Below are positions 9,803-34,414 of a stretch of DNA of 34,477 bases, in pieces. The position numbers and the translations under genes were made by a program. Within the stretch, counting starts at the first letter, position 1, and each line of letters starts with the position of its first letter. Origin of the DNA: Escherichia coli (GTDB lineage Bacteria > Pseudomonadota > Gammaproteobacteria > Enterobacterales > Enterobacteriaceae); assembly GCF_003334815.1 (NCBI RefSeq), contig NZ_QOWO01000039.1. One strand, 5' to 3'. The notes under the pieces were generated by a model, which ran no database searches, was not told the origin of the DNA, and worked only from the letters and a program-made list of their open reading frames with translations.

Positions 9803-10465
9803 TTAAAATACTTCGGCTACAGGCATGCCTGCAATCTGCTCCCACTCCTTACGCTTTTCCTGAATCAGGCGAGGAAAGTCGACAGGGTAATCATATCCTC
9901 GACTTGCCATTGCGTGCATGGTGTTTGATGCTGTTTCTGGATGAGCACACCATGATGGAACAGGAACCATTGGCAGATTGATGTATTTCGTATGAATTTC
10001 CAGTTTTTTGTCGTCTGTTACAGTACGAGTGAAATTATGAATGTCAAAACCGATAACATCCATAATGTTGCCTGGATAGATACGGACATACAACATTGTG
10101 CCATTTTTAAGGTCAATGCCGAAATAAGCTCCCTGGGTTAAAGATAATCCCTCATACCCCTTCTCTGGAGAGTAGAAGCCTGACTCTTTTATTGTTTGTA
10201 CAACTTTTCTTATTTTTTCTCTCCTTGTTTTTGCACGTGAGTACATCCATATGCCTGGCGCAAGTAATAAGAACCAACTACCGAAAGTGACAACATAATC
10301 TTCGACCTTATTTCCGAAATAACGATCAGAACATAGCATTTCGGTAAAGCCTAATGCGCAGAACAGAAAAAAAGGTATTCCAAGAAAGAAATAAGCTTTT
10401 CTTAATACATAATAAAATAGCCACCAGGTTGGAAATCTGTCTGTTGTTTCTTTTTTAGCTTTCAT
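9803..10465 (-). CDS. excA: Inner-membrane protein at the ExcA (entry-exclusion) position of IncI-type transfer regions
   Basis: 220-aa ORF with two N-terminal hydrophobic segments, last gene of the minus-strand tra block directly after the DotA-like gene; assignment is positional. Confidence 0.45.
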
Positions 10466-10535
10466 ATAATGCCTCCCCTCGTACTATCTATTATTTTAAT
10501 GCCGATGGGGAGGTTGTGCAATATTTATATTGATA

Positions 10536-12704
10536 TTATCCTTTTATTCCGTCCTTGTCGTCACTTCCTTTTGTATTATCTTTAAGACGATCTGTTTTCA
10601 TTCCAGGAGTATGTCGGATATTGCGACTTCCTCCAATAAATATTTCTTTAACAGAATTTGCCATGCTGCCAAGCGTGTTGGCTCCATCACTTCCCCCTAG
10701 GAAGTTAATAACATGATCAGGTAGGTAGGCCTGAAGGGCAAATATGGCAGCTACAGTGGTTGTACAAATTCTGGCGTATATCAGCAAGAAACCAGCAAGA
10801 CTGAAAATACCGGTCAGCGAATTGAACTGTACGTTAACCAGGGCAGCGCCAAATAATGCATTCAGTATTGTGCCTACGGCGATGATGGCTACAGAAGCAA
10901 AGAAAAAACCAAAGACCATGATGGGCGGCCTTATCATACTATCAATTAAGTATATATAACCGTAGGCTGCCCGACTTCCTCTGTCTTCTGATGTCCCGAG
11001 ATGTGTTGCAGCCCACAGCGGCCCGGCGGTACATCCTATTAATACGCTGACTATCCAGTTCCCGATGCCTGTCATCCAGAAAATAAACGGAATGAATGGC
11101 AGGTAAATTGATAAGGAAAATCCAGCACAGAACATCAGGAACAAAAGAAAATAAACAGGTGGTGCAAGTGCTTCAAACAGCGCGGTAAGCATCGAAGCGG
11201 CACCTGTTAGTGAGTTAAAGAATTTTACAAGAATTGAATCTTTGCCACCGGCAACGACAACTCTGGCCGTTGTATATATAGTCCAGATTCCTTCTGCACT
11301 TACCATTGTTATATCTCCGATATTTTTCATTTTTATCAGAGGATTAATTTGAGCACTGGTTGTGCCTGTGCCACTTGTTTCCGTTGCAATCCTGTTAGTG
11401 AGACTAACAAGGGGGCCCATAATTTCAGACAAGGCAGATTTCGGATCTTGTGCATTTGCCATGCGTTGTTCACTGGATGATACTACTGTGCCCAGCGGTG
11501 GCGTATAGGAGGAATTCTGCAGTTGCGTCCTATAGGCACTCATGACCGCACTGAATAAGTCAGTATCACCAACTTCTCCCAGTGATGACATTGAAGTTAC
11601 AGCTGGAGCTCTGTCAGCCAGCTCTGCCAGACGCTGGTTAGCAGTGGCAAAGGTCTGATACCATGCGCCAAGCGTTACCCACCCGTAGGTTGTGAGATAA
11701 GATTTAAGAGCCTCTTTTCTGGATTGCTCTCCGTTATCAGTGGGTAGCGATTTTTGCACAGCACGTTCGTATTCGTCGGCTGCTTTCTGAATTCGTGTCT
11801 CGATATCCGGCAGTGTTCCGTTGCCAGAATTTCTTTTTTCCAGAAATGTTGTCACAAACTCACTGGCAGCGTTGTCCATGTCGCTAATCATATTATCCAT
11901 GGCTGCACGTTGTGCTGAGATAACACCGCTGTACTCGTTTTTACTGAAGGGATTAAAGAATTTTCCAATCGTCGACTGATCTGTTGTTCCGTTTCCTTCT
12001 ACTGACAGGCTGGCTGTACCACAGATACCGCTGCCATTGGATACCGTGACAGTGTAATTACCACTGGCGGTTTTAGCTGATTCTGTCATCAGTGAAGTCG
12101 AGGATTTGGCGGTCTGATTAAAATCATTTAGTCCTGCGTTAACCGCATACTTACATAGTTCCATTTCAAAAATGCCACGCGCAGCTGTTCGTGTGGATGC
12201 CTGAACTGGCTGTACAGTCATTGAATAACCATTTGCGATATTATCAGCGGCAACTTGCACCATCACATTGGCGGACCCAACCCCCATTATCGATGCGCCC
12301 CATAACATAATGAGCTGAGCGAGACTCCAGCCATTTCCGGTAGGAACGATCATCAGAAAGCCTGCGACGAAACTCAGTATGCCGACAATATCGCGCCCGA
12401 CGCTGAATACCTGTCCCTGATGCCCCGAACGCACAACATGGCGGATACTAATGAAGATACACCAGACGATAGCAAGTACGGCAATGATATTGTTGAACAC
12501 CCAGAACATGCTTCCGATCAGGGTGGGGTCGCTGGTTGACAGTGGATTGGTGACCACATCACCGAATATCGTGACCAGCGCCTGGCGGGACAGATCGTCA
12601 GGATTGGTGGCGGCAGACACAATATCCTGATAGGTCACTGAAGCCATTGCCGGCAGTGAGGATATAGCAAGGCCTGCACAGAGTGCGCGAAGTAAAATTT
12701 TCAC
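10536..12704 (-). CDS. traY: DotA/TraY-like polytopic integral membrane protein of a type IVB secretion/conjugation system
   Basis: Large ORF with signal-peptide-like N-terminus and many hydrophobic segments. Start set at the GTG at 12704 (ggag-N6-GTG giving MKILLRALCAGLAISSLPAMA); the track ORF runs up to 12773 without an RBS. Confidence 0.6.
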   Translation of the reverse strand: MKILLRALCAGLAISSLPAMASVTYQDIVSAATNPDDLSRQALVTIFGDVVTNPLSTSDPTLIGSMFWVFNNIIAVLAIVWCIFISIRHVVRSGHQGQVFSVGRDIVGILSFVAGFLMIVPTGNGWSLAQLIMLWGASIMGVGSANVMVQVAADNIANGYSMTVQPVQASTRTAARGIFEMELCKYAVNAGLNDFNQTAKSSTSLMTESAKTASGNYTVTVSNGSGICGTASLSVEGNGTTDQSTIGKFFNPFSKNEYSGVISAQRAAMDNMISDMDNAASEFVTTFLEKRNSGNGTLPDIETRIQKAADEYERAVQKSLPTDNGEQSRKEALKSYLTTYGWVTLGAWYQTFATANQRLAELADRAPAVTSMSSLGEVGDTDLFSAVMSAYRTQLQNSSYTPPLGTVVSSSEQRMANAQDPKSALSEIMGPLVSLTNRIATETSGTGTTSAQINPLIKMKNIGDITMVSAEGIWTIYTTARVVVAGGKDSILVKFFNSLTGAASMLTALFEALAPPVYFLLFLMFCAGFSLSIYLPFIPFIFWMTGIGNWIVSVLIGCTAGPLWAATHLGTSEDRGSRAAYGYIYLIDSMIRPPIMVFGFFFASVAIIAVGTILNALFGAALVNVQFNSLTGIFSLAGFLLIYARICTTTVAAIFALQAYLPDHVINFLGGSDGANTLGSMANSVKEIFIGGSRNIRHTPGMKTDRLKDNTKGSDDKDGIKG

Positions 12705-14616: not shown

Positions 14617-15197
14617 TTTATTGTCTCCTGCTCGGGGTGGAGCACAAGGTCAGGAAGGCTGTCGTATTTTCTGTCTTCAGGTAGTGGGGCCAGTGGGAAA
14701 CACTGATATCGCCTGGTGATATAACCTTTCCTGTTCCGGTTATCGATGATGCTGAAAGAACGACGTCTGACGCGCCGTAAGGTGGAAGGGTCAGTATCCA
14801 TAACAGGCCAGTCACCGGCACTCAGTGCCGGCGTTCCGGGAACAGATGGCCATAACCAGGTGTCATCGGACATCAGCGAAGTCAGCGGTGAAGGGAGTAT
14901 CCACTGGATGACATGCTGAACGTCGAATGGTGCTTCATCCGGGACAGAAACCTGCCATATTGCCGTTGTTATCAGCTCATCTGTGCTGGACGGCAACAAC
15001 AGCCGCATGCCTGTAACCTTTCCCTGTGTTCTGGCATCCGAGGCGTATATCACTCTGGGATTGGGGGCCGGATGTAACCTGAAGACACGTGACGGCAGAG
15101 TGAATGAGAAACTGTCACCTTTTACCTCAAGTTTTTTAAGAAATACCTGCCCTCTGGCAGGTCTCCGGCAGCGTGGGGTGATATGAATTGTACACAT
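14583..15197 (-). CDS. Protein at the TraV position
   Basis: 204-aa ORF; its start overlaps the traU stop by 1 nt. Confidence 0.45.
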   Translation of the reverse strand: MCTIHITPRCRRPARGQVFLKKLEVKGDSFSFTLPSRVFRLHPAPNPRVIYASDARTQGKVTGMRLLLPSSTDELITTAIWQVSVPDEAPFDVQHVIQWILPSPLTSLMSDDTWLWPSVPGTPALSAGDWPVMDTDPSTLRRVRRRSFSIIDNRNRKGYITRRYQCFPLAPLPEDRKYDSLPDLVLHPEQETIKCKEKHYSQPL

Positions 15198-18100
15198 CAG
15201 AGATTGTATCCCTGTTTTCGGATGAGCTCCGAGGCCAGTTCTTCAATAACATTGTCACTGTTATGTTGGCCCGCCCGGTGCTCAATTAATGACGTTGCAG
15301 AACCTCTGGGGAAGTTTTCGGCCAGAATCTTACGTGCCCGAACTGAACCTAACTTATTTGTCAGTGTTTTACGCAGGGCACTGTCTTTTGGCGATGAGTT
15401 CAGCGCCCATAGCTCCAGTGGACCGACGGTAAATTTGAGTATTCTCGCAAGCGTGCCACTTTTTACCCTGAATACTCCCAGAACAGGAACACCACTACCA
15501 TCTGGTGCCGGGCCTTCCGGCATTTTCAGGAAGCGTTTCAGCATAAATTCAGGAACGTTGAAGTTATCCCTCAGTACGGGGATATCTTCGGGTTTGTAGC
15601 GCAGTAACCAGAGAGTATTTGCTGACTTAAGAACGCTTTCCGGGTAGTCCCTCAGATACTGCGTACTCAGAACCGTGCGGATAGCAAACTTGCGTTGCTC
15701 ACGCTCCTGGGTATCCAGATTTTCCCAGATGAAGTCAATGCCCCGGGCGTTATGCAGTTCATCATAAACTTTTGTCTTAACCTCCTGATCAAGTTGGTTA
15801 ATACGTTTAAGAGCGATTTCATGGTATTCCCGTGGAAGCTGCTTTAACACTTCATCCCTGTATTGTGGCAGGGTGAAGTCACCACCGGCGATCTGACCTG
15901 CAAGCAGGTACATGATGCCGGTTTTAAGCCTGCCTGCAGGCGTTTTGTCACCGGCAACATTATTCAGATCGACAGCGATGACCCGGGTTTCCGGGTTGAT
16001 CATAAACCGGGTATACCCGGATATCATGGGGTAGTCGTTATGTCCCTGCTCGAGCGCGCGGCGGATGTAGTCCAGCAGAAGTTCGTTTGAACCATCACGC
16101 TGAACAGTACCGAAAACATCCCTGAGACTGGTATGGCCCAGCATCGAGGACACTTCGGGAAGCTGGGGCATTGCCTGATAATGTGCCCGCTGAGCCGCCA
16201 TGATATACCCGGCATTGTGGAGCATATCCCGGACTTCGAACCAGGTTGATCTGGCCCACCAGGTTGCATCATGTTTTTCATACAGTCCCGAGTCCTGCAG
16301 TGCTGAATCCACCAGTTCTTCCGTTGAGGCGCGATAAAGTCGCGGATTATTTTCACCGTACTCTTTAAAAGCCAGCTCGATAAGCTGGTTGATAATTTGT
16401 CGGGTGTCTCCGGGGTTACAGGGTTGACCGGTACCGGTATCGACACAGAGAGCACACAGCACCGATGACATGAAATTCTTTTCCGGCGTAATAGGCTTTT
16501 TAGCGCCGTACATCACGTCAAAAAGGTTACGGGTGTATTCCGGATCATTGCTCAGAATAATACCGACAGCTTCGTCTTTTCTTTCCGGAGGAAGACTGTC
16601 GCGAATAAGCTGAACCAGTCCCTGAGCACTGTATCCCTTATCGATATAGGCAATGAAGGGCAGGTTTTTCTGAGCAGATGATATCTGTATTTCCGACAAT
16701 GTATTAATCAGAACTGATTTACCCAGTCCCGGATCGCCTGGTGCGAGTTCTGTATGTTTATTTTGTTGGGATGACGCCAGACCAACCTCAATTGCGGAAC
16801 CGTCTTCTGTATGTAACATAAGATTCCCTTTACCTCGCCAGACAGAGCCTGCCCTGTTAAGCGGGAAAAGCGAGATGGCATGTGACAACGGGGGATACAG
16901 GGGAACCGGGCCGGAGCCTCCGGATGCCGCGAGAATGGTATTCACCCAGGCGCGTCGGGGATCGCCAAATGTTGTCGTGGTGCCACATACGCCCCAGCCT
17001 TCAATGGCTGATTTCAGAATGGCCTGGTTTCGTGTGCATATTTCACGTGTTTTTCCCCACGTGGAGGCCATGATGGTCATTATGCAGACAGGTTCTTTTT
17101 CATCCGTTGCCGCCAGGGCCATAACGGATTCATACATTGGACGAACGGCAGAAATGAAGCTGCTGTAAGTCAGAAGCGTTTTCTTCAGATTAAGAGCCTT
17201 CATCCCGCCGGGCATCAGATCCATTCTGATGCGCCAGGGGACTGCGCGGGGGACGGCACGGACCAGTTCGTTAAACGTCTGCAGATTTTGCGGAGGTAAA
17301 GTAATCGATACCATTCCGTGCCAGAGTCCGCCCGCCTGAACCAGGTTGCCCTGTGTGGTCACCTGAGTGTTGAATAACTGCAAATGCAATGAAGGAGCAT
17401 GTAGTACGGATTCATCGTCAGTCCAGCGATATCCCGCTGGCTGGGCATCTTCAGGCAGGTGGGGTTGCCAGTTACGCGGTGTGCTGTGCCGTTCTGTCTG
17501 ACGACGTATTTCACGCCCGACCTCGTGTATATCCAGTAGCCGGAGAATCAGGCCATCAGATGAATGTCTCAGTGCCTGTTCCACATTATCAAGAAAAGCT
17601 TCGTGGCGGATTTTCAGTGCAGATAAGGTCCACTGCCAGGGGGATTGGGCAAAGCGTGCTTTCGGTACCCGTTCAGCCAGTCTTCTGACAAGCTCATCAT
17701 GGGCGGTGCGATCGCTGTTGCTGATAAGGTCGGGTCCACTCCAGATCGCCAGCCAGCAACGCTCCCGGACCAGCCATGGGGACAGTGTTGTGACTTTCTC
17801 ATCGACCACATCCTGTAACTGGATACCTGTATTAGCCAGTGAGCGCTTTTGTGGGGCGACCATGTCTTCGATTTCTTCTTTCCCCATGTCAGGATCACGC
17901 TCAAAAACGAAGCTGATTTTATGACCGCTGTTTTTATATGCCGTATTCAGGCTGTCACTCATGCTGGTGATCAGCGATTCCAGTGAACCTGGGCCAGTCT
18001 GGTCGGATGCTTCATCCATTTCCCTGAAAGCACCGCTGACTTCAAAGACAGAGAGATATTCTCCACGCTTTGTGGCTGCAATATAGGGCGAATTCAGCCA

Positions 18101-18241
18101 TGGGCGACGTTCACGATCCTGTCTGTCCAGACCAATTACAGTACGTAAATCGCAATACTCAACAAAACTGCTTGCGACAGAGAAACGGGATAGCGTGTTC
18201 AGACAGTCTTCGATAGTGAAGATTAAACGGTTTATGTTCAT
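15197..18241 (-). CDS. traU: DotO/IcmB-like type IVB secretion ATPase (TraU-type)
   Basis: ~1014-aa protein with Walker A-like GDPGLGKS. Start set at the ATG at 18241 (ggag upstream); the track ORF extends to a TTG at 18334. Confidence 0.7.
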   Translation of the reverse strand: MNINRLIFTIEDCLNTLSRFSVASSFVEYCDLRTVIGLDRQDRERRPWLNSPYIAATKRGEYLSVFEVSGAFREMDEASDQTGPGSLESLITSMSDSLNTAYKNSGHKISFVFERDPDMGKEEIEDMVAPQKRSLANTGIQLQDVVDEKVTTLSPWLVRERCWLAIWSGPDLISNSDRTAHDELVRRLAERVPKARFAQSPWQWTLSALKIRHEAFLDNVEQALRHSSDGLILRLLDIHEVGREIRRQTERHSTPRNWQPHLPEDAQPAGYRWTDDESVLHAPSLHLQLFNTQVTTQGNLVQAGGLWHGMVSITLPPQNLQTFNELVRAVPRAVPWRIRMDLMPGGMKALNLKKTLLTYSSFISAVRPMYESVMALAATDEKEPVCIMTIMASTWGKTREICTRNQAILKSAIEGWGVCGTTTTFGDPRRAWVNTILAASGGSGPVPLYPPLSHAISLFPLNRAGSVWRGKGNLMLHTEDGSAIEVGLASSQQNKHTELAPGDPGLGKSVLINTLSEIQISSAQKNLPFIAYIDKGYSAQGLVQLIRDSLPPERKDEAVGIILSNDPEYTRNLFDVMYGAKKPITPEKNFMSSVLCALCVDTGTGQPCNPGDTRQIINQLIELAFKEYGENNPRLYRASTEELVDSALQDSGLYEKHDATWWARSTWFEVRDMLHNAGYIMAAQRAHYQAMPQLPEVSSMLGHTSLRDVFGTVQRDGSNELLLDYIRRALEQGHNDYPMISGYTRFMINPETRVIAVDLNNVAGDKTPAGRLKTGIMYLLAGQIAGGDFTLPQYRDEVLKQLPREYHEIALKRINQLDQEVKTKVYDELHNARGIDFIWENLDTQEREQRKFAIRTVLSTQYLRDYPESVLKSANTLWLLRYKPEDIPVLRDNFNVPEFMLKRFLKMPEGPAPDGSGVPVLGVFRVKSGTLARILKFTVGPLELWALNSSPKDSALRKTLTNKLGSVRARKILAENFPRGSATSLIEHRAGQHNSDNVIEELASELIRKQGYNL

Positions 18242-19366: not shown

Positions 19367-19771
19367 TTAGCCAATGGAAATTGAGGAAATCCCCAACTGT
19401 TTCTGGCTGCGACTCATCATTTCAGGTCCGGCGACAAGTACCGCCCCAATGACGATAGATACAATGCAACTAGCCAGTCCCATCCCCCCTTGTTTCCCAA
19501 CTTTTTTCAGGCCAATCAGGCCCCCGAGAAACAGAATTACGCCGATGAACTGCGCAATAGTCAGTGATGATGACTGTGCTGTTTTGGCACCTTGTTCGAC
19601 ATTGCGAACCATATCGGCAAGATCTCCATCGGCAAGAACGGCTTTGGGCAGCAACATCATGGGAATGAGCAGCAGGAACTTAGTCAGTTTGCTCCGGCAT
19701 GACATTACAAACAGTTGTGCGTGGATAAATGCGGCGTACAGACGGGCCGCTACGACACGAATACGTGACAT
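19367..19771 (-). CDS. Small membrane protein at the TraR position
   Basis: 134-aa ORF; strong RBS (aaggag) before the ATG at 19771; hydrophobic segments. Confidence 0.5.
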   Translation of the reverse strand: MSRIRVVAARLYAAFIHAQLFVMSCRSKLTKFLLLIPMMLLPKAVLADGDLADMVRNVEQGAKTAQSSSLTIAQFIGVILFLGGLIGLKKVGKQGGMGLASCIVSIVIGAVLVAGPEMMSRSQKQLGISSISIG

Positions 19772-19821: not shown

Positions 19822-20349
19822 TCAGAAGACGATTCCAATGCTTGCCAGCAGGGCATTGAGGACACGATCGATAAAGACCAGCAGGACGCCGGCAATAAAT
19901 TTGACGTTTCCCTTACTGACGGATTCACTGGCACTCAGTGCGGTATGTCCATCGAGTCCGGCCTTGCGCCAGATGGATATCCCGTTCATTACAAATCCAA
20001 CACCGGCCAGCTTGGCCAGCGACAGAACTGCATTTGCTGCGCCAGCAGCAGCGCCAAACGTCTGAGGTTGTACATATGCAATCGGGCCAAATGAGTCAGC
20101 CCTGAATCCCATTTGTACGCCTCCGGCGTTAATCATTGCCGGGAGTGATACGAGCATGCAGCTGGTTAACATCCCCGCAATAAATTTTCCGGGAGACATT
20201 TTTACCGGACCGGCTGAACGGGCGCGGGCAAACAGGGTAATCATGCTGATCACCCCGATGAATTCTCCCCAGGTAAACAGGAAATCCATTCCGGCACTGA
20301 AAATACTGCTGGCAAAGTTCTCAATGGCGGTCAGGGCATCCATGTTCAT
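19822..20349 (-). CDS. Polytopic membrane protein at the TraQ position
   Basis: 175-aa hydrophobic ORF; its start overlaps the traP stop. Confidence 0.5.
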   Translation of the reverse strand: MNMDALTAIENFASSIFSAGMDFLFTWGEFIGVISMITLFARARSAGPVKMSPGKFIAGMLTSCMLVSLPAMINAGGVQMGFRADSFGPIAYVQPQTFGAAAGAANAVLSLAKLAGVGFVMNGISIWRKAGLDGHTALSASESVSKGNVKFIAGVLLVFIDRVLNALLASIGIVF

Positions 20350-24392: not shown

Positions 24393-27300
24393 TCATCGGC
24401 CGGGGCTGTGGGAGAGATCCTGATGCAGAGTTTTTTCCTGCCTGTCCTCCGGCTTTTGGCTGTTGGACCACTGCTGCCATGACTGCTCGAAGCCCAGGTT
24501 CCGGTACAACGCATCAGGTTGTTTTTCCGGCGTGTAGACAGCAGCAAAAAGCGGTTCTTCCCGGGTTTTCAGATGAAACTGCATAAGCTCCGGTGCAGGG
24601 CGATTCGTGCTGTCAGCATCGTGGTTTACCGCTTCACCATAACCTGCAAAGCGTAAACCTTTGTCGGTCAGCGCATTGATAACCAGCTGACTGTTGTCGG
24701 CTGATGGGGTGGCCAGTGCCGGATACAATGTGCCGTTCAGCCGGACCACACCCTGCAGATGTTCATCGGCACTCTGGACAAGTAGCAGGTTGAGTTCACG
24801 CGTATCCTTATCCACTGATCCCAGAACAGGTGTCAGCTTGTCAGGGGCTGCGCTGGTTATTTCTGTTACCTGATTTGCGTTCTGTGGCGCGGAGACCGGA
24901 TGTCGGTCTTCACCGATAAACAGATGTGAGCCGACGTTTTCTGGCATACGTAACGCTTTCATCTCTTCGGGCCACCCCTGGCTGATTTGCGCAGCCACTT
25001 TCATAAAGGTTTCGACCGGAATCGCCTGAATACGCTGACCTTTATCCGGATTATCATGTGATACCGAGATCCCGTTGGTAACTGACTCCATGGACCACTT
25101 ATTCCGGAAACGTGCTTTTTGCTCTCCCGGGAGGATGAATTGTTCGCGGTTCTGAAGTGTCAGTGTCACCACGTCACCTTTCTGATGGTTTTTGACCAGA
25201 CTTTCCAGTTGTTCCCCCCAGTAGAGTTTGCTGCCACTGCGGTTTTTAAGCTCAACAAAGAAACTCTCTCCTTTGCCGGGTGCATATTCAGCACGACCAA
25301 AATTGTGCAGTACGGCAGTCACGCTCTCTCCCGGGCGAAGTTTTCCTGGTGGTTCTTCGTCTGGTGCCACATCTGCCGTTTTGCCTGGTTCAGCCGGTGA
25401 TGGTGCAGAGGCGGTGCTGACGGTTGATGCTTCAGGGGCTACTGGGGACGCCGGGGATTGTGTGGCTTCTTTTTCCTGAACGGGGTCAGGGACAGCCGGT
25501 TGTTCTGGGGTATTCCGGTTAAGTTCCGGTGTTGGCTGATGGGTGACAACTGCATCCTTACTGACAGCCATTTCCTTGCGTAATTTTTCTAGTTCAGCCC
25601 GTTGATCTGGCAATTTCATCCGGACATCGATGTTGTGCTCGATAATCAACTGCATTGCTTTTTGCTTAAAGGCATCACTGCCCGTCAGCTCTATGACGCC
25701 CCCATAAAATTTGGTGGCCACAGCAAGTGCGGCCAGAACGCTGCGATCGTCATTGCTGGCACCGTTGACCATTTCCAGCCGGTTTACCCGGTCAATGAAG
25801 GCAGGTTTGCCATCCAGTTTGTACAGGACGGTTCTGTCTGCTCGTTTTTCCCAGTCAAGCTCTTTAAGAATTTCGTCCATGTTGAGCGATATCGGTGCAT
25901 CAGAACGTTCCGGGGCGTAGACAATACTGTCAGGTATCGGTGGAGTCGTCGTGGTTTCCGCTGAGGGCGTGGGATCACTGTTCTCATGCGCCTGTGAATC
26001 CGTTTTTTTACGCGTAAAAAGGCCACGCGCTTTGTCGAGAAACGATGAAGTATTATCAGAAGGTGATGTGCTCTGAACAGGTTGCTGCGGAGTGGGTTCA
26101 TCCCGGACAGCCGGTTCTATAGTGGCTGTTGTGGCCTGAAGTTCTGACTCATCTGCCTGAACGGGGCCTGTGTCCGGTTGCGACGGCATATCACTGTTTT
26201 CCTGCAGATGCTCAGGATTTTCATTGTTCATCAGCTCCTGATATGCGCTGTAGTCTTCGTATTCTTCAGGGCCATCTGACTCAGGAAGGAACGGCTCTGG
26301 CTGAAGGGGAATGTCTTCAGTTACATGGCTGACCGCCTCTTCCCGGGGAGTATCCGGGGATATTCCGGTGCTTTGTTTGTCATCAGGCTCCGTCATCACG
26401 GTCATTTCCTCTTTGACTGCATCAGGGGAAGGTGATGGTTCGGCTGATTCATTCATGGTTTCAGATGAGGGGCTGTCTTCAGGGGCGGCGGGGGCAGCAG
26501 CAGGGGCCGGTATTTCTGGTGAAGTGCCGGACTCCTGTTGTAACTCGTTTTTTTCCGGTTGTGACAGTTCGGCTTCAAATTCACGCCAGTCTTTATCTGT
26601 GGCCACAGAGACAACTTTTTCCGGAGGTTCCGCCGGATGAGCGGGTTCATCAGGGGCAGACGCCGTTGTACTTTCCGGGGATGCCGGTGATTCTGCAGGG
26701 GAGTCCTGAACTACAGAGCTTTCCGTTTGCGCCTGAACGTTATCAGGGTGCCGCTCATCTTTGCCGTTATTTTCAGTGGCGTGACTGGTAAATGACAGTG
26801 TTTCATCAGCAATGTTACTGCTGGAAGCAGTTGGTTGTTCCTGCTGCGTGGCGGACGGCAGAGAAGGTCCCTGGTCATGGCTGTGCCCTGTATCGGGTGA
26901 TGTTTCAGGATATTCTGTCGGAGTCATGGTTTTTTCCTCAGTGTGGACCGGTGTAAAAACGAGGTTGCCGATCACCAGTGCCTCCCGGATTTCCGGGGTG
27001 TTACTGTTGGGGGTGGAAACCCCGATATGTTCTAACTGGGCGTTGATGACATGCTGAAAAGCGGCCCGTCCCCGGCTGGCGTCCAGGTCATTGAAATCGG
27101 TCAGTCCCTGCGATTTTTCGGCATCGGTGAACGCAGGAAAGATGACCGATCCTCCTGTCAGTTCTGCGGCTTTTGTTGCACTGACGATACCTTTGTTAAC
27201 CTGGCGTGCATGATCGTTGTCGGCACAGAAGATAAAGGGGCTTTGCTTCCATTTTTGCCGGGCATCTTCGGCCACGGCAATCATGTTGCCCGCATCCACT

Positions 27301-28160
27301 GTCATCAGCACCGGAAGGCCGGTGGCTTCGTGCAGGGAGGCGGCAGTGGCATAGCCCTCGGCAAACAGCACCGGCTGGCCGTTGCGCGGTGTACCCAGCG
27401 CAAACCAGTTACCGGTTTTCTCGGAATCTTTCAGGATGCGGGCATCCTTCCCGCCGGTGACCGGAATGCGCTGATAGGAGCGTATTGCGCCGTTACGGTT
27501 GCGGAAAGGAATAACGAGCTCATTTTTGTCGTTTATTCGCACCCCCGGCGCAGCCTGAATGCCTTTCCGGGTCAGGTATTCATGTGCCGTGGCCTGCGGC
27601 CATTTGTTGACATAGCGGCGGGCATAAGCAGCCTGTCGGTTGTACTGTGCTTTCAGTTCCCGCTCAGCGTCCTCCCTGCGTTGCAGCGAATGCGCTTTCA
27701 GGTGAAGCCTTGCGCGGGGATCTGTCTGCTCTCCGCCGGAGAAGGTCCAGTTGACCGGCGAATCATCCGCGCTGCGATAATCCCTGTACCAGCCGGCAGG
27801 TCTGCCGTCCAGGAAGCCGCGATATGCGCCACTTTTTTGCCCGTTTTTGTCATCGGTGGTCGGAACCCGGTGGATTTTACCGTCCATGGCCGGCAGTTCT
27901 TTCAGAACCAGTCCGGCATTTTCCAGTACCTGGGCAAACTCGGTGACCGGATCACTGCCGTTCATGGAGACTTCCTGCGGTCGGGGCAGCCAGCGGTCCA
28001 GCATGGACAGGTCCGCCCCCGGGCGGGCAAACCAGAGTTTGTGCTCTTTATCCCAGAGGACGGGCGTGTGCCCGTTCATCGGGGGATGTGCTTTTTTGAG
28101 ATCTTCTATTTCATCTGCAGGCACGGCAAGCCAGGTGCGGTAGCGGGATACAGACGGCAT
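24393..28160 (-). CDS. sogL: Sog-like conjugative DNA primase (N-terminal primase/Toprim-like domain, long acidic P/E/S/T-rich linker, large C-terminal domain)
   Basis: Start set at the ATG at 28160 (aggag RBS), giving about 1255 aa; the track ORF extends to a GTG at 28196. About 350 aa of low-complexity acidic linker in the middle. Confidence 0.7.
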   Translation of the reverse strand: MPSVSRYRTWLAVPADEIEDLKKAHPPMNGHTPVLWDKEHKLWFARPGADLSMLDRWLPRPQEVSMNGSDPVTEFAQVLENAGLVLKELPAMDGKIHRVPTTDDKNGQKSGAYRGFLDGRPAGWYRDYRSADDSPVNWTFSGGEQTDPRARLHLKAHSLQRREDAERELKAQYNRQAAYARRYVNKWPQATAHEYLTRKGIQAAPGVRINDKNELVIPFRNRNGAIRSYQRIPVTGGKDARILKDSEKTGNWFALGTPRNGQPVLFAEGYATAASLHEATGLPVLMTVDAGNMIAVAEDARQKWKQSPFIFCADNDHARQVNKGIVSATKAAELTGGSVIFPAFTDAEKSQGLTDFNDLDASRGRAAFQHVINAQLEHIGVSTPNSNTPEIREALVIGNLVFTPVHTEEKTMTPTEYPETSPDTGHSHDQGPSLPSATQQEQPTASSSNIADETLSFTSHATENNGKDERHPDNVQAQTESSVVQDSPAESPASPESTTASAPDEPAHPAEPPEKVVSVATDKDWREFEAELSQPEKNELQQESGTSPEIPAPAAAPAAPEDSPSSETMNESAEPSPSPDAVKEEMTVMTEPDDKQSTGISPDTPREEAVSHVTEDIPLQPEPFLPESDGPEEYEDYSAYQELMNNENPEHLQENSDMPSQPDTGPVQADESELQATTATIEPAVRDEPTPQQPVQSTSPSDNTSSFLDKARGLFTRKKTDSQAHENSDPTPSAETTTTPPIPDSIVYAPERSDAPISLNMDEILKELDWEKRADRTVLYKLDGKPAFIDRVNRLEMVNGASNDDRSVLAALAVATKFYGGVIELTGSDAFKQKAMQLIIEHNIDVRMKLPDQRAELEKLRKEMAVSKDAVVTHQPTPELNRNTPEQPAVPDPVQEKEATQSPASPVAPEASTVSTASAPSPAEPGKTADVAPDEEPPGKLRPGESVTAVLHNFGRAEYAPGKGESFFVELKNRSGSKLYWGEQLESLVKNHQKGDVVTLTLQNREQFILPGEQKARFRNKWSMESVTNGISVSHDNPDKGQRIQAIPVETFMKVAAQISQGWPEEMKALRMPENVGSHLFIGEDRHPVSAPQNANQVTEITSAAPDKLTPVLGSVDKDTRELNLLLVQSADEHLQGVVRLNGTLYPALATPSADNSQLVINALTDKGLRFAGYGEAVNHDADSTNRPAPELMQFHLKTREEPLFAAVYTPEKQPDALYRNLGFEQSWQQWSNSQKPEDRQEKTLHQDLSHSPGR

Positions 28161-28249: not shown

Positions 28250-28801
28250 TCAGGGTCTCCAGTCTGTACCCTTATTCCAGCGATCCTGCCAGTGTTCAAG
28301 ATATTGTGCGGCTACATCCGGCATATTCTTAAGCACAACGACATTCTCTGAATTCTTGCGTGCAGCAGCACGAGAGAAGTTATAGGAGCCGGTTTCAACC
28401 GTGTTTCCGTCAACAATGATGACTTTGTCGTGATGGATGGGGAAGGCATCTACAGTCCGGAGAGGAATGTCCAGCAGGTTGATATATTTCATCGCTTCCT
28501 GACTTGCCCGGTTCGTATTCCCCTTGTCATCAACAACAATACGGACGTCCACTCCGCGTTTTTTCGCTTTTGCCAGCGCATGCATTACATCCGGGTCGGT
28601 GAAGGAATATGCCATCATCCTGATGGAGCTTTCCGCACTGTTGATTGTGTCAAGCACCAGAGCGGATGCGCTTCCTTCAGGAGAAAAGCCGACCTTCACG
28701 GATGGCGTGTCGATCATTGCAAACGATGGTGTCGTGAACAGTAACGGGCATGCCAGTAGCGATACCCGGAGCAGAGTAACGATAGTTTTTTTACCTGACA
28801 T
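28250..28801 (-). CDS. nuc: Phospholipase-D-superfamily endonuclease (Nuc-like), secreted
   Basis: HKD motif (IHHDKVIIVDGNTVETGSYNFS); signal peptide MSGKKTIVTLLRVSLLACPLLFTTPSFA from the internal ATG at 28801 (ggag RBS); the upstream part of track ORF 28250..29161 is judged non-coding. Confidence 0.75.
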   Translation of the reverse strand: MSGKKTIVTLLRVSLLACPLLFTTPSFAMIDTPSVKVGFSPEGSASALVLDTINSAESSIRMMAYSFTDPDVMHALAKAKKRGVDVRIVVDDKGNTNRASQEAMKYINLLDIPLRTVDAFPIHHDKVIIVDGNTVETGSYNFSRAAARKNSENVVVLKNMPDVAAQYLEHWQDRWNKGTDWRP

Positions 28802-28815: not shown

Positions 28816-29106
28816 TTAATCGAGGCCAGTCCAGTCTCGTGGTGATTCCGTATGGTGGCGATACCACCATGGACGACCGGAGGCGATGGCCCCTCTCAGA
28901 ATGCTGTAAATGCGAGTACAGATCGTCCTGACAGTCCAGCCTGAACGGTCGAGAATAACGAAAAATAAAATGATGCCGGTGCAAATCCAGAAGGTTGTTT
29001 TGGAGGGAAAGGGGCATATAAACAGATAAATCATGGTGAACGGCAGAGGTACGCCCTGGATGTTGACTGGCGGTGTTGCATATCGCCAGAAACCTTCTCT
29101 TTTCAT
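28816..29106 (-). CDS. Small membrane protein at the TraK position (IcmT-like?)
   Basis: 96-aa hydrophobic ORF whose ATG overlaps the traJ stop (ATGA coupling). Confidence 0.5.
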   Translation of the reverse strand: MKREGFWRYATPPVNIQGVPLPFTMIYLFICPFPSKTTFWICTGIILFFVILDRSGWTVRTICTRIYSILRGAIASGRPWWYRHHTESPRDWTGLD

Positions 29107-30251
29107 GACCGTAACTCCCCTGGCGGGATAAAAAGAATCGCTTCTCTTCGGTCAACTTCATTCCGGATATACATTTCCAGAATCTGGTCCCGGATACGGC
29201 GCTTCTCCTGCCGGATTATGGCATCAATGTGATGCCCCCACTCTGCATGTGGCATTCCGGAAAGATTGTCGCGAAGCTCATCGTTAATGACGATATATTC
29301 CCGGACGGCTTTACGACCACCGTCATTTGTTCTGACCAGAACCTGAACCAGAATGAACTGCAACAGTGACAGGACAGCCCAGGCCATCGAATCCCTGATG
29401 ACAGGGGGAAACAGCCCAAGAAGACGTGCCAGCGTTTCACCAGGAGATTTCGTATGCATGGTGCTCAGGCAGTAATGTCCGGTGTTGCCTGCCTGTACCG
29501 CTGCGTCGGCGGTTTCGTTATCCCTGATCTCACCAACACCGATAATTTCGGGATTACGTCGTACAGCAGAACGCAGTCCGGCAGCAAAACTGACCACATC
29601 ACGCCCGATTTCTGCCTGATGCGGTGGGAGCAGATCGTTTTCATTTCCCAGGATATATTCCACCGGGTCTTCATATGTCACGATTTTGGCGTCGGGGAAA
29701 TTGTCCATAATGTAACGGTACAGTGCTGAACACAGCGTTGATTTTCCTGACCCGGTTTCACCACATACAAATCCCAGACCGCTTTTGCAGACCATTGCTT
29801 CAAGCAGGTCTGGTTCAATGTTCATGGAGAGAATGTCCGGTATTTCTGTCGGGATGACACGCATGGTTATTGAGATTGCTTTCTCCTCCGCACCAGATGT
29901 GCCCTGAATGAGGTGAGAGCGTAACCGGATGCGTTCTCCGCGTTTAAGACCATAGCGCCCGGATGCATCCCCGTTAATCTGTATCGTCCTGTCAACCGGA
30001 TTGCCTGCCAGAACGCGGGGAATGACTTCCCGACCGAACAGTTCATCAATCAGGGAGGACATGAGTGTGGTTGGTAACGTTGCACTGGAACAACGCACCC
30101 GTCGGCCAAAGCGACTGACAGATACAGGTGACCCGCCGGTCAGATCCACATCACTGACTTTATGTGCGGCACACCAGACAAAGAAATGCCGTAGTTCATC
30201 TGCAGTGAAACGCTGAAACGGAAAAAGACCAAACTCATCAGGAATATTCAT
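29103..30251 (-). CDS. traJ: DotB/PilT-family secretion ATPase (TraJ-type)
   Basis: 382-aa ORF with Walker A GETGSGKST and downstream acidic/His-box-like motifs typical of PilT/VirB11-like ATPases. Confidence 0.75.
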   Translation of the reverse strand: MNIPDEFGLFPFQRFTADELRHFFVWCAAHKVSDVDLTGGSPVSVSRFGRRVRCSSATLPTTLMSSLIDELFGREVIPRVLAGNPVDRTIQINGDASGRYGLKRGERIRLRSHLIQGTSGAEEKAISITMRVIPTEIPDILSMNIEPDLLEAMVCKSGLGFVCGETGSGKSTLCSALYRYIMDNFPDAKIVTYEDPVEYILGNENDLLPPHQAEIGRDVVSFAAGLRSAVRRNPEIIGVGEIRDNETADAAVQAGNTGHYCLSTMHTKSPGETLARLLGLFPPVIRDSMAWAVLSLLQFILVQVLVRTNDGGRKAVREYIVINDELRDNLSGMPHAEWGHHIDAIIRQEKRRIRDQILEMYIRNEVDRREAILFIPPGELRS

Positions 30252-31066
30252 CGGGAGCCTCCTTCAGTGCCTATAAGCGGACGCCAGTGAGATTTCTGAA
30301 GATTGAATTCCGCATGATTTTTAAGGCGACGAACACGATCTCCAGTGACCAGTTTTTTCCCGTCACCTGTAACGGTTTGCATTTGATCAGAAACATCCGG
30401 ACGGGTGATCATGCCCTGACGCCAGAGAAGTGAGTACAGCATCATGCCCCGGTAATCACGGGTGAGGGTTTTCTGGTTGGCTTCAAGCGTCAGGTCGGCG
30501 TTTTGTCTTCCTTCCTGCCATCCCTGCCGTAATGCGGTTTCCCACACTTTTCGTTGCACGCTGTCTTCTGGAACGACGCTGCCTTCTGTACCCGGAGTGG
30601 CTGTTGTTGAAAGCCCCCGGAGAAGCCAGTCACGCCAGCCCGGTGGATTGCTGACAAAGCGTTCAGGGCGAATGATGGTCCAGACCCGGGAAGAGGTCCG
30701 GATTTGATCTGGCGTGATATGAGCTACGTCCTGTGCTTCATCAATAACCGGTGGTAGCCAGCCTTCCGGGCTAATCAGTGGCCGGAAATCGTATAAGGCA
30801 TTAAGTGTGCTTTCCCGGGCGTTGAGTGCCTGAATCAGCTCCCATGAACGCTGAGCCTTGCCACCACGAAATCCAAGCGTTTTACCTGCGTCGGTCAGCA
30901 TTTTCCAGCGTGTTTCTGACAGACTATCCGGCTTTTCACTTCGTGGTTTAAGCCATGCATTAATGTCAGGTGGTGGCGTATTGACACCACCTGGCGAGAT
31001 GGTAGGGGAAGAAGAACAACCAGTAAGCAGTATTACTGGCAAAATGAGAGAGGTGAGTGCTTTCAT
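30248..31066 (-). CDS. traI: DotC-like outer-membrane lipoprotein (TraI-type)
   Basis: 272-aa ORF with lipobox (LLTGC); overlaps traH by 4 nt. Confidence 0.55.
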   Translation of the reverse strand: MKALTSLILPVILLTGCSSSPTISPGGVNTPPPDINAWLKPRSEKPDSLSETRWKMLTDAGKTLGFRGGKAQRSWELIQALNARESTLNALYDFRPLISPEGWLPPVIDEAQDVAHITPDQIRTSSRVWTIIRPERFVSNPPGWRDWLLRGLSTTATPGTEGSVVPEDSVQRKVWETALRQGWQEGRQNADLTLEANQKTLTRDYRGMMLYSLLWRQGMITRPDVSDQMQTVTGDGKKLVTGDRVRRLKNHAEFNLQKSHWRPLIGTEGGSR

Positions 31067-31521
31067 TTTTTCCGGTTCTCCGGCTGCATGAAGCTGACCT
31101 GTAACAAGCCCGGATATTGATGGATTGTTGCTCTCCAGGCTGTCTGGGCTTCAATAAGTCTCAACGTATTGGAAAACGTCATATCCCGGACGTGAAGGTT
31201 GACTGGTAACGGCAGGCGGACACCATTGTAGTTAAACTGCATCCCCCTGACTCTGGCCAGTTCGTTCAGTAATTCAATTGCATCACCTTCCCAGTCAAAG
31301 GAAAGGCGATCGCTGTTAGCTGTCAGAAGATGAGACCCCGTTGAAACCGGAAGTTGGCCGGAAAACACACCTTTGTCCCATAATGTGTACTGAGTGTGCC
31401 GGGTAACCGCCACATCAGAGGCAGCACCGTAGTTACGCGGAACAGGAGTATGCTGAGAAGGGGAGTTGCAGCCAGCCAGAAAAAGGGCGGCAAGACACCC
31501 CGCAGGTATAATACGGTTCAT
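31063..31521 (-). CDS. traH: DotD-like lipoprotein (TraH-type)
   Basis: 152-aa ORF with lipobox (LFLAGC); about 395 bp of non-coding DNA upstream, probably holding the operon promoter. Confidence 0.55.
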   Translation of the reverse strand: MNRIIPAGCLAALFLAGCNSPSQHTPVPRNYGAASDVAVTRHTQYTLWDKGVFSGQLPVSTGSHLLTANSDRLSFDWEGDAIELLNELARVRGMQFNYNGVRLPLPVNLHVRDMTFSNTLRLIEAQTAWRATIHQYPGLLQVSFMQPENRKK

Positions 31522-31915: not shown

Positions 31916-32500
31916 CTATGCCTCTTTGTTGTATTTTCCGTCAAGTATGAGCCGGGTACCATCGTAATGCATGATCAGGGCATCAAGGTACGCCGGTTTG
32001 AATTTCTTGCCGAGCCTATCTCTGGCCAGAAATGATAAACAATGATTATGTGTCATTATTACTATGTTCCTTTTATGAGATTCTCTTGCGATTGATTCAA
32101 GCGTCTTATAAAGATCATTATTGCAGTCTGATAAACTGTCCATAACGACGGGTTCTTTACCGGAGAAGAATTTTGCAGTTTGTATGGTTCTTACCGCATT
32201 GCTGGAGTAAATATCATATTCACTGAAGATTGTTGCGAACTTAATACCTTCCTGCTGTGCTTTCTCTGTACCGGTAATAGTGATTCCGCTTTTATCCGAA
32301 TAGCATGGCATATCTGAACGGTCGCAACGTTCTCCATGGCGGAAAAGGAAAATAACGGTGTTATCAGCATTAATTTCTTTTGCCTGTTCCAGGGTGATAT
32401 CGGGAAGCGAGCTTTTTGCTTTTGTCACTGCCGCTACCAGGAAAACAGAAAATAAAAGAATGAATGCTGTTTTTGAATAAGAAGAACGTGGTTTCATCAT
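31916..32500 (-). CDS. Periplasmic histidine-phosphatase-superfamily protein, Ais/PmrG-like
   Basis: 194-aa ORF with signal peptide and the RHG catalytic motif (FRHGERCDRS), later THNHC; size and layout resemble Ais-type small periplasmic phosphatases. Confidence 0.65.
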   Translation of the reverse strand: MMKPRSSYSKTAFILLFSVFLVAAVTKAKSSLPDITLEQAKEINADNTVIFLFRHGERCDRSDMPCYSDKSGITITGTEKAQQEGIKFATIFSEYDIYSSNAVRTIQTAKFFSGKEPVVMDSLSDCNNDLYKTLESIARESHKRNIVIMTHNHCLSFLARDRLGKKFKPAYLDALIMHYDGTRLILDGKYNKEA

Positions 32501-32525: not shown

Positions 32526-32547
32526 CCCCCGGGTTTAGTGCCGGGGG
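32526..32547 (-). terminator. Intrinsic terminator after the outer-membrane-barrel gene (stem cccccgg/ccggggg, then a U-rich tail on the minus strand)
   Basis: 7-bp GC stem followed on the minus strand by uauuuuuauauu; lies between the 32560 stop and the 32500 start. Confidence 0.55.
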
Positions 32548-32559
32548 CGGGGACAGTAA

Positions 32560-33762
32560 TCAGAAAGTGAACTGAAGTTGTGCCATTGCACCGTAATCGT
32601 GGTCAGTTCCTACCAGGCCGGAAACATCGATATGTACGACGTCAAATGGAGAGATACCAACGCCAGCGGTGAAGGCGCTTCCGGAGTCTGATGCCATGTT
32701 CTGACGATAACCGGCACGCAATTGCGCCCATTTCCATGCGTTAAATTCAGCACCAACACTTGCAAACTGACGTTTGCTGTCAGAAGTGAAGCCACTGGCA
32801 GGAGTCAGATCAACGTCAAGAGCAGTGGTAAACAGGTCATTATGCCAGGATACACCGGCGGTTGCCTGTGGACGAACTTTGAAGGTTTCTTTAAAGCCAT
32901 TGACGACTTTAGTATCAATACTGCGTGGAATGATGTTCTGGGCAACAAGACCGACAGTCCAGTTGTCATTCAGGTCTGTATAAGCACCAATATCGGCGTT
33001 GAATCCGTTTTTCGTGTTGTGGTACTTGTCACCGTCAAAATCGTCTTTGTCGTAATCACGAACCGTTACGTTGTAGTTAAACAGGTCCACACGCTGATAT
33101 TTTGGTGTGACGCCAAGAGACCATTTTTGTCCGGCCGTTTCCAGTTCTTTGGCAAATGAAATTCCGACGTCGGTAATTACAGCTGCACGCCCGAATGCGC
33201 GTGAGGTCAGGGCATTCTTATCGACGTCGGTAATTGTTCCATTGGCAACTTTGTCCAGATAATCCAGGTCTGCATCGTTTACTTTTCCGTTTACGCTGAC
33301 TGTTCCGTAAGACTTGACCATAAGGGCAAACGGCAGAGTGTCATTTGCCATGGCTGCTACAGCTGATGCACCTACCTGAGCATCTGCATTGATATTGCGG
33401 AATTCCTGCAGACGATGTTTAAGATTTGCCGCTGCCTGTTGTACGCCATGCTGGTTATCTACAGCACTGTCAAACAAATCCCAGTCATCTTTAACATCAT
33501 CAGCTTTATTTGATACATCATCAGGATCAGCAACTTGTGCCCCAACAGACGGCAGAAGAAGGCTGAAATCATCATTGCTGTTGTGCTTTGTCAGTAAAGC
33601 CGGGTTTGCCAGAGGTGCCACACCATAATGGGAAGATGCTACCCCGGTGCCACCCATTGCATCGTTACGCGCTTCAAAATATGACGTCGCTGCTGCAGCG
33701 TTAAAGGAAAATAATACAGCAGATGCAATGATGGTGCGGGTAATATGATTTTTCTTCATCAT
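32560..33762 (-). CDS. Outer-membrane beta-barrel protein (signal peptide, C-terminal ...LQFTF)
   Basis: 400-aa ORF with signal peptide MMKKNHITRTIIASAVLFSFNAAAA, many alternating hydrophobic/polar strands and a terminal Phe; sits where traF would be in IncI naming but is not verified. Confidence 0.55.
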   Translation of the reverse strand: MMKKNHITRTIIASAVLFSFNAAAATSYFEARNDAMGGTGVASSHYGVAPLANPALLTKHNSNDDFSLLLPSVGAQVADPDDVSNKADDVKDDWDLFDSAVDNQHGVQQAAANLKHRLQEFRNINADAQVGASAVAAMANDTLPFALMVKSYGTVSVNGKVNDADLDYLDKVANGTITDVDKNALTSRAFGRAAVITDVGISFAKELETAGQKWSLGVTPKYQRVDLFNYNVTVRDYDKDDFDGDKYHNTKNGFNADIGAYTDLNDNWTVGLVAQNIIPRSIDTKVVNGFKETFKVRPQATAGVSWHNDLFTTALDVDLTPASGFTSDSKRQFASVGAEFNAWKWAQLRAGYRQNMASDSGSAFTAGVGISPFDVVHIDVSGLVGTDHDYGAMAQLQFTF

Positions 33763-33847
33763 TTAATTTCCTGTTTATCAGAATTTAGACAAAACAACGC
33801 TATGACACGGATGTGCCGTAAATTTTTACTTTGGTACTATCTGGTAT

Positions 33848-34414
33848 TTACCAGGGTAATAAAGACGTATTAAATAAGCTAACAGGTAGTATTTGCCCTG
33901 TAATAAGGTTTCCGGCAAGGCCAGGTCTCAACGTAACGCGTCGCAAAGACATTGTTGTATTCTGCCTGGTTGTATATTCAGTTAACCATTTTCTTTTTTC
34001 ATCGTTCAGAAGTGTTGGTGATAATGATAGTGCCGGATATATTACAGAGCCATTTATTTCTTTTTCCTGTCTCAATATTACCCCGCAATATTCTCTTTTC
34101 GTGTTTCCTGCGAAGGGGAAACTATGCCAGAAAATAACTTCAGTGTTGCTGCTATCATTAATAAGCATTCTGAAATTATGAGCAGTATCTGGCCATTCAC
34201 CGGACAACGCTATCGGATAGTTTTCATGGCCATTCAGCCAGTCCGGATTGAGATTAAAACATTCAGCAAGATGTTCGAGAGCGTCAACTGAAAGATAGTC
34301 TGCAAGTCTGGCCGGGTCCTGTATTACCGTGGAGCGGATATTCCATGGCGACAGCAATGTTGCCAGTAATGGCGCATTTATATCATGCGACAGCATGATG
34401 GGTAATGACTCCAA
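33848..34414 (-). CDS. Hypothetical protein upstream of the tra block; start uncertain (TTG at 34414 or internal ATG)
   Basis: 188-aa track ORF on the same strand as the tra genes; no recognisable motif. Confidence 0.3.
   Translation of the reverse strand: MESLPIMLSHDINAPLLATLLSPWNIRSTVIQDPARLADYLSVDALEHLAECFNLNPDWLNGHENYPIALSGEWPDTAHNFRMLINDSSNTEVIFWHSFPFAGNTKREYCGVILRQEKEINGSVIYPALSLSPTLLNDEKRKWLTEYTTRQNTTMSLRRVTLRPGLAGNLITGQILPVSLFNTSLLPW

Follow-up and report, generated by a model that had tools for sequence, protein, structure and literature searches.

A predicted R64/ColIb-P9-type IncI1 transfer region with an IS1-interrupted traE in an Escherichia coli contig

Which transfer system is encoded by the long one-strand gene block of this E. 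coli contig, and does it differ from systems already known? The window (the whole 34,477-nt stretch of DNA analysed) had been described in an earlier note, made from the sequence alone, as holding an I-type type IVB transfer block at 9803-34414 that looked like a known family, with genes named by position. Judged by its sequence, the block almost certainly represents the main transfer genes (traE' to traY, then excA) of an R64/ColIb-P9-type IncI1 plasmid, the prototype MPF_I/type IVB system. The features are collected in Table 1.

Table 1 Features of the transfer block and its ends in the window.
Feature	Product or description	Coordinates	Strand	Evidence
Hairpin	terminator-like hairpin and T-run just past excA	9762..9783	-	consensus scan: 9-pair stem, 6 G-C pairs
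excA	IncI1 surface/entry-exclusion protein (220 aa)	9803..10465	-	NF033891 289.5 bits; 98.2% to R64 ExcA
traY	DotA/TraY polytopic membrane protein (722 aa, GTG start)	10536..12704	-	TIGR04346 DotA_TraY 572 bits; 97.8% to R64
traX	194 aa	12801..13385	-	NF033887 165.8 bits; 93.8% to R64, the most divergent gene
traW	400 aa	13414..14616	-	NF033888 555 bits; 97.2% to R64
traV	204 aa	14583..15197	-	99.5% to R64 TraV
traU	IcmB/DotO-type (distant VirB4) ATPase (1014 aa)	15197..18241	-	100% to R64 TraU; Walker A GDPGLGKS, residue 502
traT	266 aa	18331..19131	-	100% to R64
traS	62 aa	19115..19303	-	100% to R64
traR	small membrane protein, TraQ paralogue (134 aa)	19367..19771	-	Pfam DUF6750; weak TraQ-model match; 95.5% to R64
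traQ	small membrane protein (175 aa)	19822..20349	-	NF033883 223 bits; 100% to R64
traP	DotF/IcmG-like bitopic protein (234 aa)	20349..21053	-	NF033885 287 bits; IcmG/DotF 1.2e-9
traO	DotG/IcmE (VirB10-like) protein (429 aa)	21053..22342	-	NF033884 495 bits; DotG/IcmE C-terminal region 1.1e-10
traN	DotH/IcmK-like outer-membrane core protein (327 aa)	22345..23328	-	PDB 6x62 DotH 9.9e-25; Pfam PF12293
traM	DotI/IcmL (VirB8-like) protein (230 aa)	23339..24031	-	solved R64 TraM 3wz3 4.8e-90; DotI 3wz4 1.2e-12
traL	115 aa, signal-peptide-like N-terminus	24028..24375	-	100% to R64
sogL	plasmid primase (1255 aa)	24393..28160	-	97.5% to R64; Pfam DUF5710, Toprim_3, LPD7
nuc	PLD-family endonuclease (183 aa)	28250..28801	-	PDB 1byr 5.1e-63; HxK(x4)D motif as HDKVIIVD
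traK	IcmT-like small membrane protein (96 aa)	28816..29106	-	NF038220 (IcmT/TraK) 38.7 bits vs cut-off 40; Pfam IcmT_2
traJ	DotB/PilT-type ATPase (382 aa)	29103..30251	-	TIGR02525 plasmid_TraJ 584.7 bits; Walker A GETGSGKS
traI	DotC-like lipoprotein (272 aa)	30248..31066	-	PDB 6x62 DotC 1.7e-31; lipobox LTGC
traH	DotD-like lipoprotein (152 aa)	31063..31521	-	PDB DotD (6x62/3ady) 7.3e-5; Pfam PF16816 DotD; lipobox LAGC
traG	Ais/PmrG-like histidine phosphatase (194 aa)	31916..32500	-	NF011945 295 bits; 100% to R64
traF	secreted protein (400 aa)	32560..33762	-	99.2% to R64; PorV/PorQ family 55 bits, under cut-off 90
traE 3' fragment	about 183/274 codons	33848..34400	-	R64 alignment stops at 34400 = R64 record 41580, inside traE 41028-41852
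IS1 end	outside transfer block	34401..34477	.	terminal repeat read; IS1A annotated in NZ_LT985321.1

Closeness to R64 and other plasmids

R64 (NC_005014.1) aligned with window positions 8943-34400 as one colinear block (25,458 columns, 290 mismatches, 1 gap; 98.86% nucleotide identity), which confirmed the earlier view of a known family and settled the divergence that had been left unmeasured. The minus strand carries all 23 complete genes and one gene remnant between 9803 and 34400. Each complete gene has exactly its R64 length, and the products share 93.8-100% amino acid identity with those of R64, with nine of the 23 (TraU, T, S, Q, P, L, J, H and G) at 100%. The traE-traY/excA region of R64 and ColIb-P9, both IncI1, holds the same 24 genes with the same order, strand and lengths; the order traE-F-G-H-I-J-K-nuc-sog-traL...Y-excA is colinear with R64, with IS1 interrupting traE. 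Substitutions relative to R64 lie in patches (the traY 5' end with traX, traW/V, the traO 5' end and the N-terminal half of sog) and peak at 33 differences per 500 nt. The window also differs from R64 by the IS1 in traE at 34401 and by a lactate-utilisation/IS66 island that breaks the pnd-excA spacer. IncI1-specific NCBIfam equivalogs scored above their curated cut-offs (bits/cut-off) for ExcA (289.5/100), TraX (165.8/100), TraW (555/100), TraQ (223.4/80), TraP (286.8/135), TraO (495.5/225) and TraJ (584.7/368).

The E. coli ECOR 3 plasmid RCS85_pI (NZ_LT985321.1) is 100% identical to window 9803-34414 (24,612 nt), IS1 junction included, and diverges from the window upstream of ~9134; MOB-suite types it as conjugative, MPF_I and MOBP. 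A sister plasmid, E. coli 2011C-4315 plasmid unnamed2 (NZ_CP024481.1), is 100% identical over window 5000-9900 and has no IS1 in traE: its match stops at 34400, with traE the sole feature listed under the match. Beyond the inserted island it carries trbABC and nikB. At least 80% of 9803-34414 is present in 1,269 plasmid records. The transfer block is a well-studied, ordinary system that was already known, and itself holds nothing new.

Block ends and transfer competence

The block starts where it had been placed before, at 9803, the stop codon of excA, and the hairpin at 9783-9762, a pattern match, likely marks the end of the transfer operon. The opposite end had to be moved. R64-like sequence ends at 34400 and the IS1 terminal repeat GGTAATGACTCCAACTTATTGATAGTG... 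begins at 34401, so the former end at 34414 corresponds to the TTG with which an artefactual ORF starts, 14 nt inside IS1; the body of that ORF is the 3' two-thirds of traE. The last ORF of the earlier description is thus what remains of traE after loss of its 5' part from the reading frame, extended by 14 nt of IS1. Deletion of the 5' part of traE by IS1 was considered and rejected, since in NZ_LT985321.1 traE resumes past IS1 with a short duplication, pointing to a simple insertion.

The genes are tightly packed, as described earlier, but their spacing is not confined to 4-bp overlaps or a few bases: it spans -34 to +394 nt. Neighbouring genes overlap by 4 bp in four cases, by 1 bp in three, and by 17 and 34 bp in one case each; elsewhere they are 2-96 nt apart, except for traG and traH, which are separated by 394 nt. 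In a sigma-70 promoter scan, sites were rarer than in shuffled sequence (9 versus 15.9; 5 versus 11.8), and therefore no promoter is proposed.

Alone, the block would be unable to transfer DNA; it would need trbABC (coupling protein and partners), nikAB with oriT (relaxosome) and traBC (activators). As trbABC, nikAB/oriT, traABC and the pil genes all lie outside the window, the completeness of the source plasmid's system cannot be read from the window. TrbC with TrbA/B, NikB/NikA and oriT are present in R64, and in NZ_LT985321.1 pil genes follow past IS1, with rci and most of the shufflon missing. Genetic evidence for conjugative transfer exists for R64 (PMC6112013) and pESBL (PMC4288162); in the near-identical region of pESBL, transposon sequencing showed that, of the 20 genes from traH to traY, 19 are required for transfer and only nuc is dispensable (PMC4288162). 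We consider it unlikely that the block is an inactive remnant on a plasmid left non-conjugating by the surrounding IS activity (IS1 in traE; an IS66/IS3-flanked island by excA). The interruption of traE at 34401, the replacement of part of the pnd-excA spacer by an island bounded by IS66-family elements and the loss of rci and most of the shufflon past IS1 in the identical ECOR 3 plasmid would fit such decay, but traE and rci are unnecessary for transfer (PMC6112013, PMC4288162), the other 23 genes are intact at R64 length, NZ_LT985321.1 is typed conjugative and the sister plasmid has kept trbABC and nikB.

The type IVB apparatus and its relatives

No replicon (repZ or Inc RNA) was found within the window, and the IncI1 assignment was made from transfer-gene sequence; R64 itself is typed IncI1/B/O. 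The same gene order occurs in IncK/B/O/Z, IncI-gamma, IncI2 and IncL/M plasmids, and further plasmid records match the block at 60-80% (455) or 80-90% (68) identity, so diverged relatives exist. That the block should come from one of these other I-complex or related backbones is nevertheless very improbable, given its identity to R64 over its whole length and ExcA and TraY products 98% identical to the R64 alleles. The IncL/M plasmid pCTX-M3 (MPF_I) belongs to the same family and has a similar gene order, but lacks traEFG, traS/T and traV and has its nuc elsewhere (PMC6112013), whereas the window has all of these; the TraU protein of pCTX-M3 shares 35% identity with its ColIb-P9 counterpart and 28% with DotO (PMC6112013).

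The Dot/Icm names first given by position hold for TraH (DotD), TraI (DotC), TraJ (DotB), TraK (IcmT, just under the family cut-off), TraU (IcmB/DotO) and TraY (DotA), as do the equivalences of the core and membrane proteins TraM (DotI), TraN (DotH), TraO (DotG) and TraP (DotF). Going by R64 identity and genetics and by the solved Legionella Dot/Icm structures, TraH, TraI and TraN would form the outer-membrane core and TraO and TraP would span the periplasm. TraM, TraK, TraQ, TraR and TraY (with ~8 hydrophobic segments) would serve as inner-membrane or pilus-related parts, and the cytoplasmic ATPases TraU and TraJ would power assembly and transfer. The best solved relative of TraJ was DotB (6geb, 1.6e-49), ahead of PilT. 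A sequence search of the PDB found no solved relative of TraO, whose link to DotG comes from NCBIfam at 1e-10, and NCBIfam searches gave no family match for TraV or TraL.

TraU matched nothing in Pfam or NCBIfam even at E <= 10, and PDB searches with its sequence or a 12-sequence profile returned nothing but a chance-level HerA at E 0.27, so that the link to IcmB/DotO had to be sought through homologue, gene-context and fold searches. Its full-length relatives carry the names IcmB/DotO, and the GxxGxGKS and DE motifs are invariant among its homologues. A relative with 26% identity occupies the icmB position in an icmL-K-E-G-C-D-J-B locus, an order that traM-N-O-P-...-U mirrors. The predicted structure of TraU was mediocre (pLDDT 64.9, pTM 0.44, below 50 in the P-loop region), and the IcmB/DotO matches that Foldseek returned for it, with TM-scores of only ~0.5, probably owe much to sequence. 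The assignment of TraU to this ATPase family draws on the names of its homologues, its gene context, the conserved Walker motifs and this mediocre model. Because the sequence searches were empty, kinship with VirB4 is taken from the literature, which describes R64 as the prototype of MPF_I and TraU as a distant homologue of VirB4 and DotO (PMC6112013, PMC4027160). The ATPases and lipoproteins do match the DotO, DotB, DotC and DotD families, a point on which the earlier note had staked its reading.

Its Sog-like primase, PLD-family nuclease and ExcA-position membrane protein were equally borne out. Within sog, GAGGA precedes an in-frame ATG at 26927, and this ATG fits the start of SogS, which is listed as a separate entry (PMC4288162). 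The Sog primase would enter the recipient together with the DNA, Nuc would be a dispensable periplasmic nuclease, and redundant mating would be blocked by ExcA acting against the TraY of an incoming donor.

The Dot/Icm system of Legionella pneumophila has a homologous core, ATPases and membrane parts in the same local order (traM-U versus icmL-B), but its sequence similarity to the window is only distant; it delivers effectors into host cells, whereas the IncI1 system passes DNA and Sog from one bacterium to another, and the IncI1 block has in addition excA, sog, nuc, traEFG and traS/T/V/W/X. A Dot/Icm-like effector secretion system, suggested by the ~20-30% identity to Legionella parts, or a genomic-island T4SS (MPF_G, ICEclc/pKLC102-type) is scarcely credible beside the near-identity to a proven conjugation system, the conjugative primase (sog) and entry-exclusion (excA) genes inside the block, the relaxase gene nikB adjoining the equivalent block in R64 and NZ_CP024481.1, the MPF_I typing of the identical plasmid and the finding of no Tfc-type/MPF_G component (ICEclc, pKLC102, ICEHin1056) in NCBIfam, Pfam and PDB searches.

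The traEFG module and the place of the block

Transposon sequencing of pESBL classed traE, traF and traG as non-essential for transfer (PMC4288162), and traE is dispensable in R64 too (PMC6112013). From its sequence TraG is clearly predicted to be an Ais/PmrG-type LPS core heptose(II)-phosphate phosphatase, and TraF, which weakly resembles PorV/FadL-type outer-membrane barrels, is probably such a barrel. The PilV adhesins of the IncI1 thin pilus recognise the LPS core of the recipient. Given this recognition and the phosphatase type of TraG, TraG could change donor LPS. It is a speculative and decidedly unlikely idea that the dispensable traEFG genes remodel the donor surface, with TraG altering donor LPS and leaving donors poor targets for each other's pili; if true, TraG would bring about a kind of exclusion at the point where the pilus binds.

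The transfer block touches no open question and its value is for annotation only: the window can be marked as part of a common IncI1 plasmid backbone, its genes can be named and delimited exactly, and the disruption of traE by IS1 is flagged. This backbone is common in E. coli, Salmonella and Shigella, and the IncI1 group spreads resistance genes widely.

Identity of the transfer block and its divergence from R64

A run of ORFs, all on the minus strand, extends across the window from 9803 to about 34400, in keeping with the one-strand transfer gene block described in the earlier note. A megablast search with window 9803-34414 against 72,556 plasmid records matched 1,969 of them, nearly all from Escherichia, Salmonella and Shigella, and 1,269 contain at least 80% of the query. 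The top match, E. coli ECOR 3 plasmid RCS85_pI (NZ_LT985321.1), was full-length and 100% identical; it is typed as conjugative (relaxase MOBP, mating-pair formation MPF_I) and annotated over the block as excA, traY, traX ... traH, histidine phosphatase and traF. Divergence, previously unmeasured, was obtained against the reference plasmid R64 (NC_005014.1), to which window 8943-34400 aligned as a single block (25,458 columns, 290 mismatches, one gap; 98.86% nucleotide identity). Gene lengths were exactly equal to those of R64 in all 23 complete genes, and protein identity ranged from 93.8% (TraX) to 100% (TraU, T, S, Q, P, L, J, H and G). The mismatches were uneven, concentrated at the traY 5' end and traX, traW/V, the traO 5' end and the N-terminal half of sog. 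The block is the already known, textbook transfer region of IncI1 plasmids: the MPF_I-typed identical plasmid and the colinearity with R64 uphold the reading as an I-type conjugation system, and the identity to R64 that of a known family rather than a new system.

Block ends, flanking elements and transfer

The left limit of the block stood, coinciding with the excA stop codon. The right limit (34414) did not: the alignment to R64 reaches no further than 34400, and the terminal repeat of an IS1 takes over at 34401. The final ORF called earlier, which starts with TTG and spans 33848-34414, therefore joins the 3' two-thirds of traE to 14 nt of IS1. In NZ_LT985321.1, the only PLSDB plasmid with a match spanning this junction, traE continues on the other side of the IS1, which is 768 bp long, with 9-10 bp duplicated; the event was therefore a simple insertion. 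Genes had been described as separated by 4-bp overlaps or a few bases; four 4-bp overlaps were indeed found, along with three of 1 bp, but neighbouring genes overlap by as much as 34 bp, and the widest gap, separating traG from traH, measures 394 nt.

Table. Features of the window and Dot/Icm counterparts of the IncI1 products.
Feature	Window position	Strand	Assignment and evidence
L-lactate utilisation operon	332-4782	minus	lutC, lutB, lutA-like Fe-S protein, L-lactate permease
IS3 and IS66-family elements	1-137; 5361-8050		bound lactate island; tnpA, tnpB, frameshifted/partial tnpC; GC up to 60%
~107-nt direct repeat	8166-8272; 8539-8645; 8785-8891		three copies, 71-81% identical
sok antitoxin RNA	8384-8525	+	Rfam RF01794, 67.5 bits
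Terminator-like hairpin	9783-9762		3' of excA stop
excA stop codon	9803		left end of block
traU	15197-18241		
traG	31916-32500		strong hit: LPS core heptose(II)-phosphate phosphatases, Ais/PmrG type; NF011945 295 bits (cut-off 142)
GC-rich terminator-like hairpin	32548-32525		between traG and traF
traF	32560-33762		PorV/PorQ outer-membrane barrel family, sub-threshold, 55 bits (cut-off 90)
IS1 end	34401-34477		NZ_LT985321.1 34599-35366; interrupts traE after about codon 91
TraH			DotD, 7.3e-5; Pfam DotD; lipobox LAGC
TraI			DotC, PDB 6x62 1.7e-31; lipobox LTGC
TraJ			DotB; TIGR02525 585 bits; closest solved relative DotB 1.6e-49, PilT behind
TraK			IcmT; IcmT/TraK model 38.7 bits (just below cut-off 40); Pfam IcmT_2
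TraM			DotI, 1.2e-12; solved R64 TraM 3wz3 4.8e-90
TraN			DotH/IcmK, 9.9e-25
TraO			DotG, 1e-10
TraP			DotF, 1e-9
TraY			DotA; DotA_TraY family 572 bits

The lactate island also occurs in the sister plasmid NZ_CP024481.1 (E. coli 2011C-4315 plasmid unnamed2), between pnd and excA with trbABC on its far side. Every copy of the direct repeat carries the hairpin CCGACTGGTGAGGTCGG followed by a T-run, and two of the three match Rfam AgrB (RF02891) on the minus strand (50.7 and 59.4 bits). AgrB is the antisense RNA of DinQ-type toxins; no DqlB-like toxin ORF, as annotated in R64, was seen adjoining the repeats. The sok element matches, over 75 nt at 93%, the sequence immediately preceding the Hok/Gef gene (pnd) of R64, but no Hok-like ORF adjoins it. 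It appears to be what is left of a pnd region, or a second, diverged copy, located at the inserted island's edge. Outside the window, NZ_LT985321.1 lacks R64 interval 42058-44571, holding rci and most shufflon segments (site at 35853-36260 of NZ_LT985321.1); its PilV thin-pilus tip would be locked in one form.

In the very similar pESBL region, transposon sequencing found 19 of 20 traH-traY genes needed for transfer, with nuc dispensable and traE, traF and traG also unneeded (PMC4288162); R64 genetics gave a similar picture (PMC6112013). The IS1 in traE is therefore not expected to block transfer. TrbC (the coupling protein), TrbA/B, NikAB/oriT, regulators and thin-pilus genes lie beyond the window and are carried by sister plasmids.

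Dot/Icm counterparts and the TraU ATPase

Profile and structure-database matches confirmed the DotD-like and DotC-like lipoproteins, DotB/PilT ATPase, small IcmT-like membrane protein and DotA-like polytopic protein proposed earlier (Table). Three further proposals were also substantiated, in products without a Dot/Icm counterpart: the ExcA-position membrane protein is ExcA (289.5 bits to the IncI1 ExcA model), the PLD-family nuclease is Nuc (endonuclease 1byr at 5e-63, HxK(x4)D motif) and the Sog-like primase has primase-type domains. An in-frame ATG at 26927 within sog, with a GAGGA site, fits the start of the known short form SogS.

TraU gave zero matches to Pfam and NCBIfam HMMs, even at E <= 10, and none to PDB sequences in single-sequence or profile searches. 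Its homologues at 44-49% identity carry the JGI name IcmB, and a relative at 26% identity (93% coverage, E 5e-64) occupies the icmB position of its locus, where icmL-icmK-icmE-icmG-icmC-icmD-icmJ-icmB mirrors traM-N-O-P-Q-R-S-T-U. Walker A and DE motifs are invariant across TraU and its homologues, and Foldseek with a TraU model of mediocre quality returned full-length matches to proteins named IcmB/DotO. Together these support the proposed DotO/IcmB-type assignment, the block's one weak point, and published work likewise describes TraU as a relative of IcmB/DotO and, distantly, of VirB4, with R64 as the MPF_I prototype (PMC6112013, PMC4027160). For this ATPase, central to a plasmid family that is very common, sequence searches reach no solved relative. 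Its public annotation appears to rely on rules other than Pfam or NCBIfam HMMs, and automated pipelines using HMMs only would give TraU no name.
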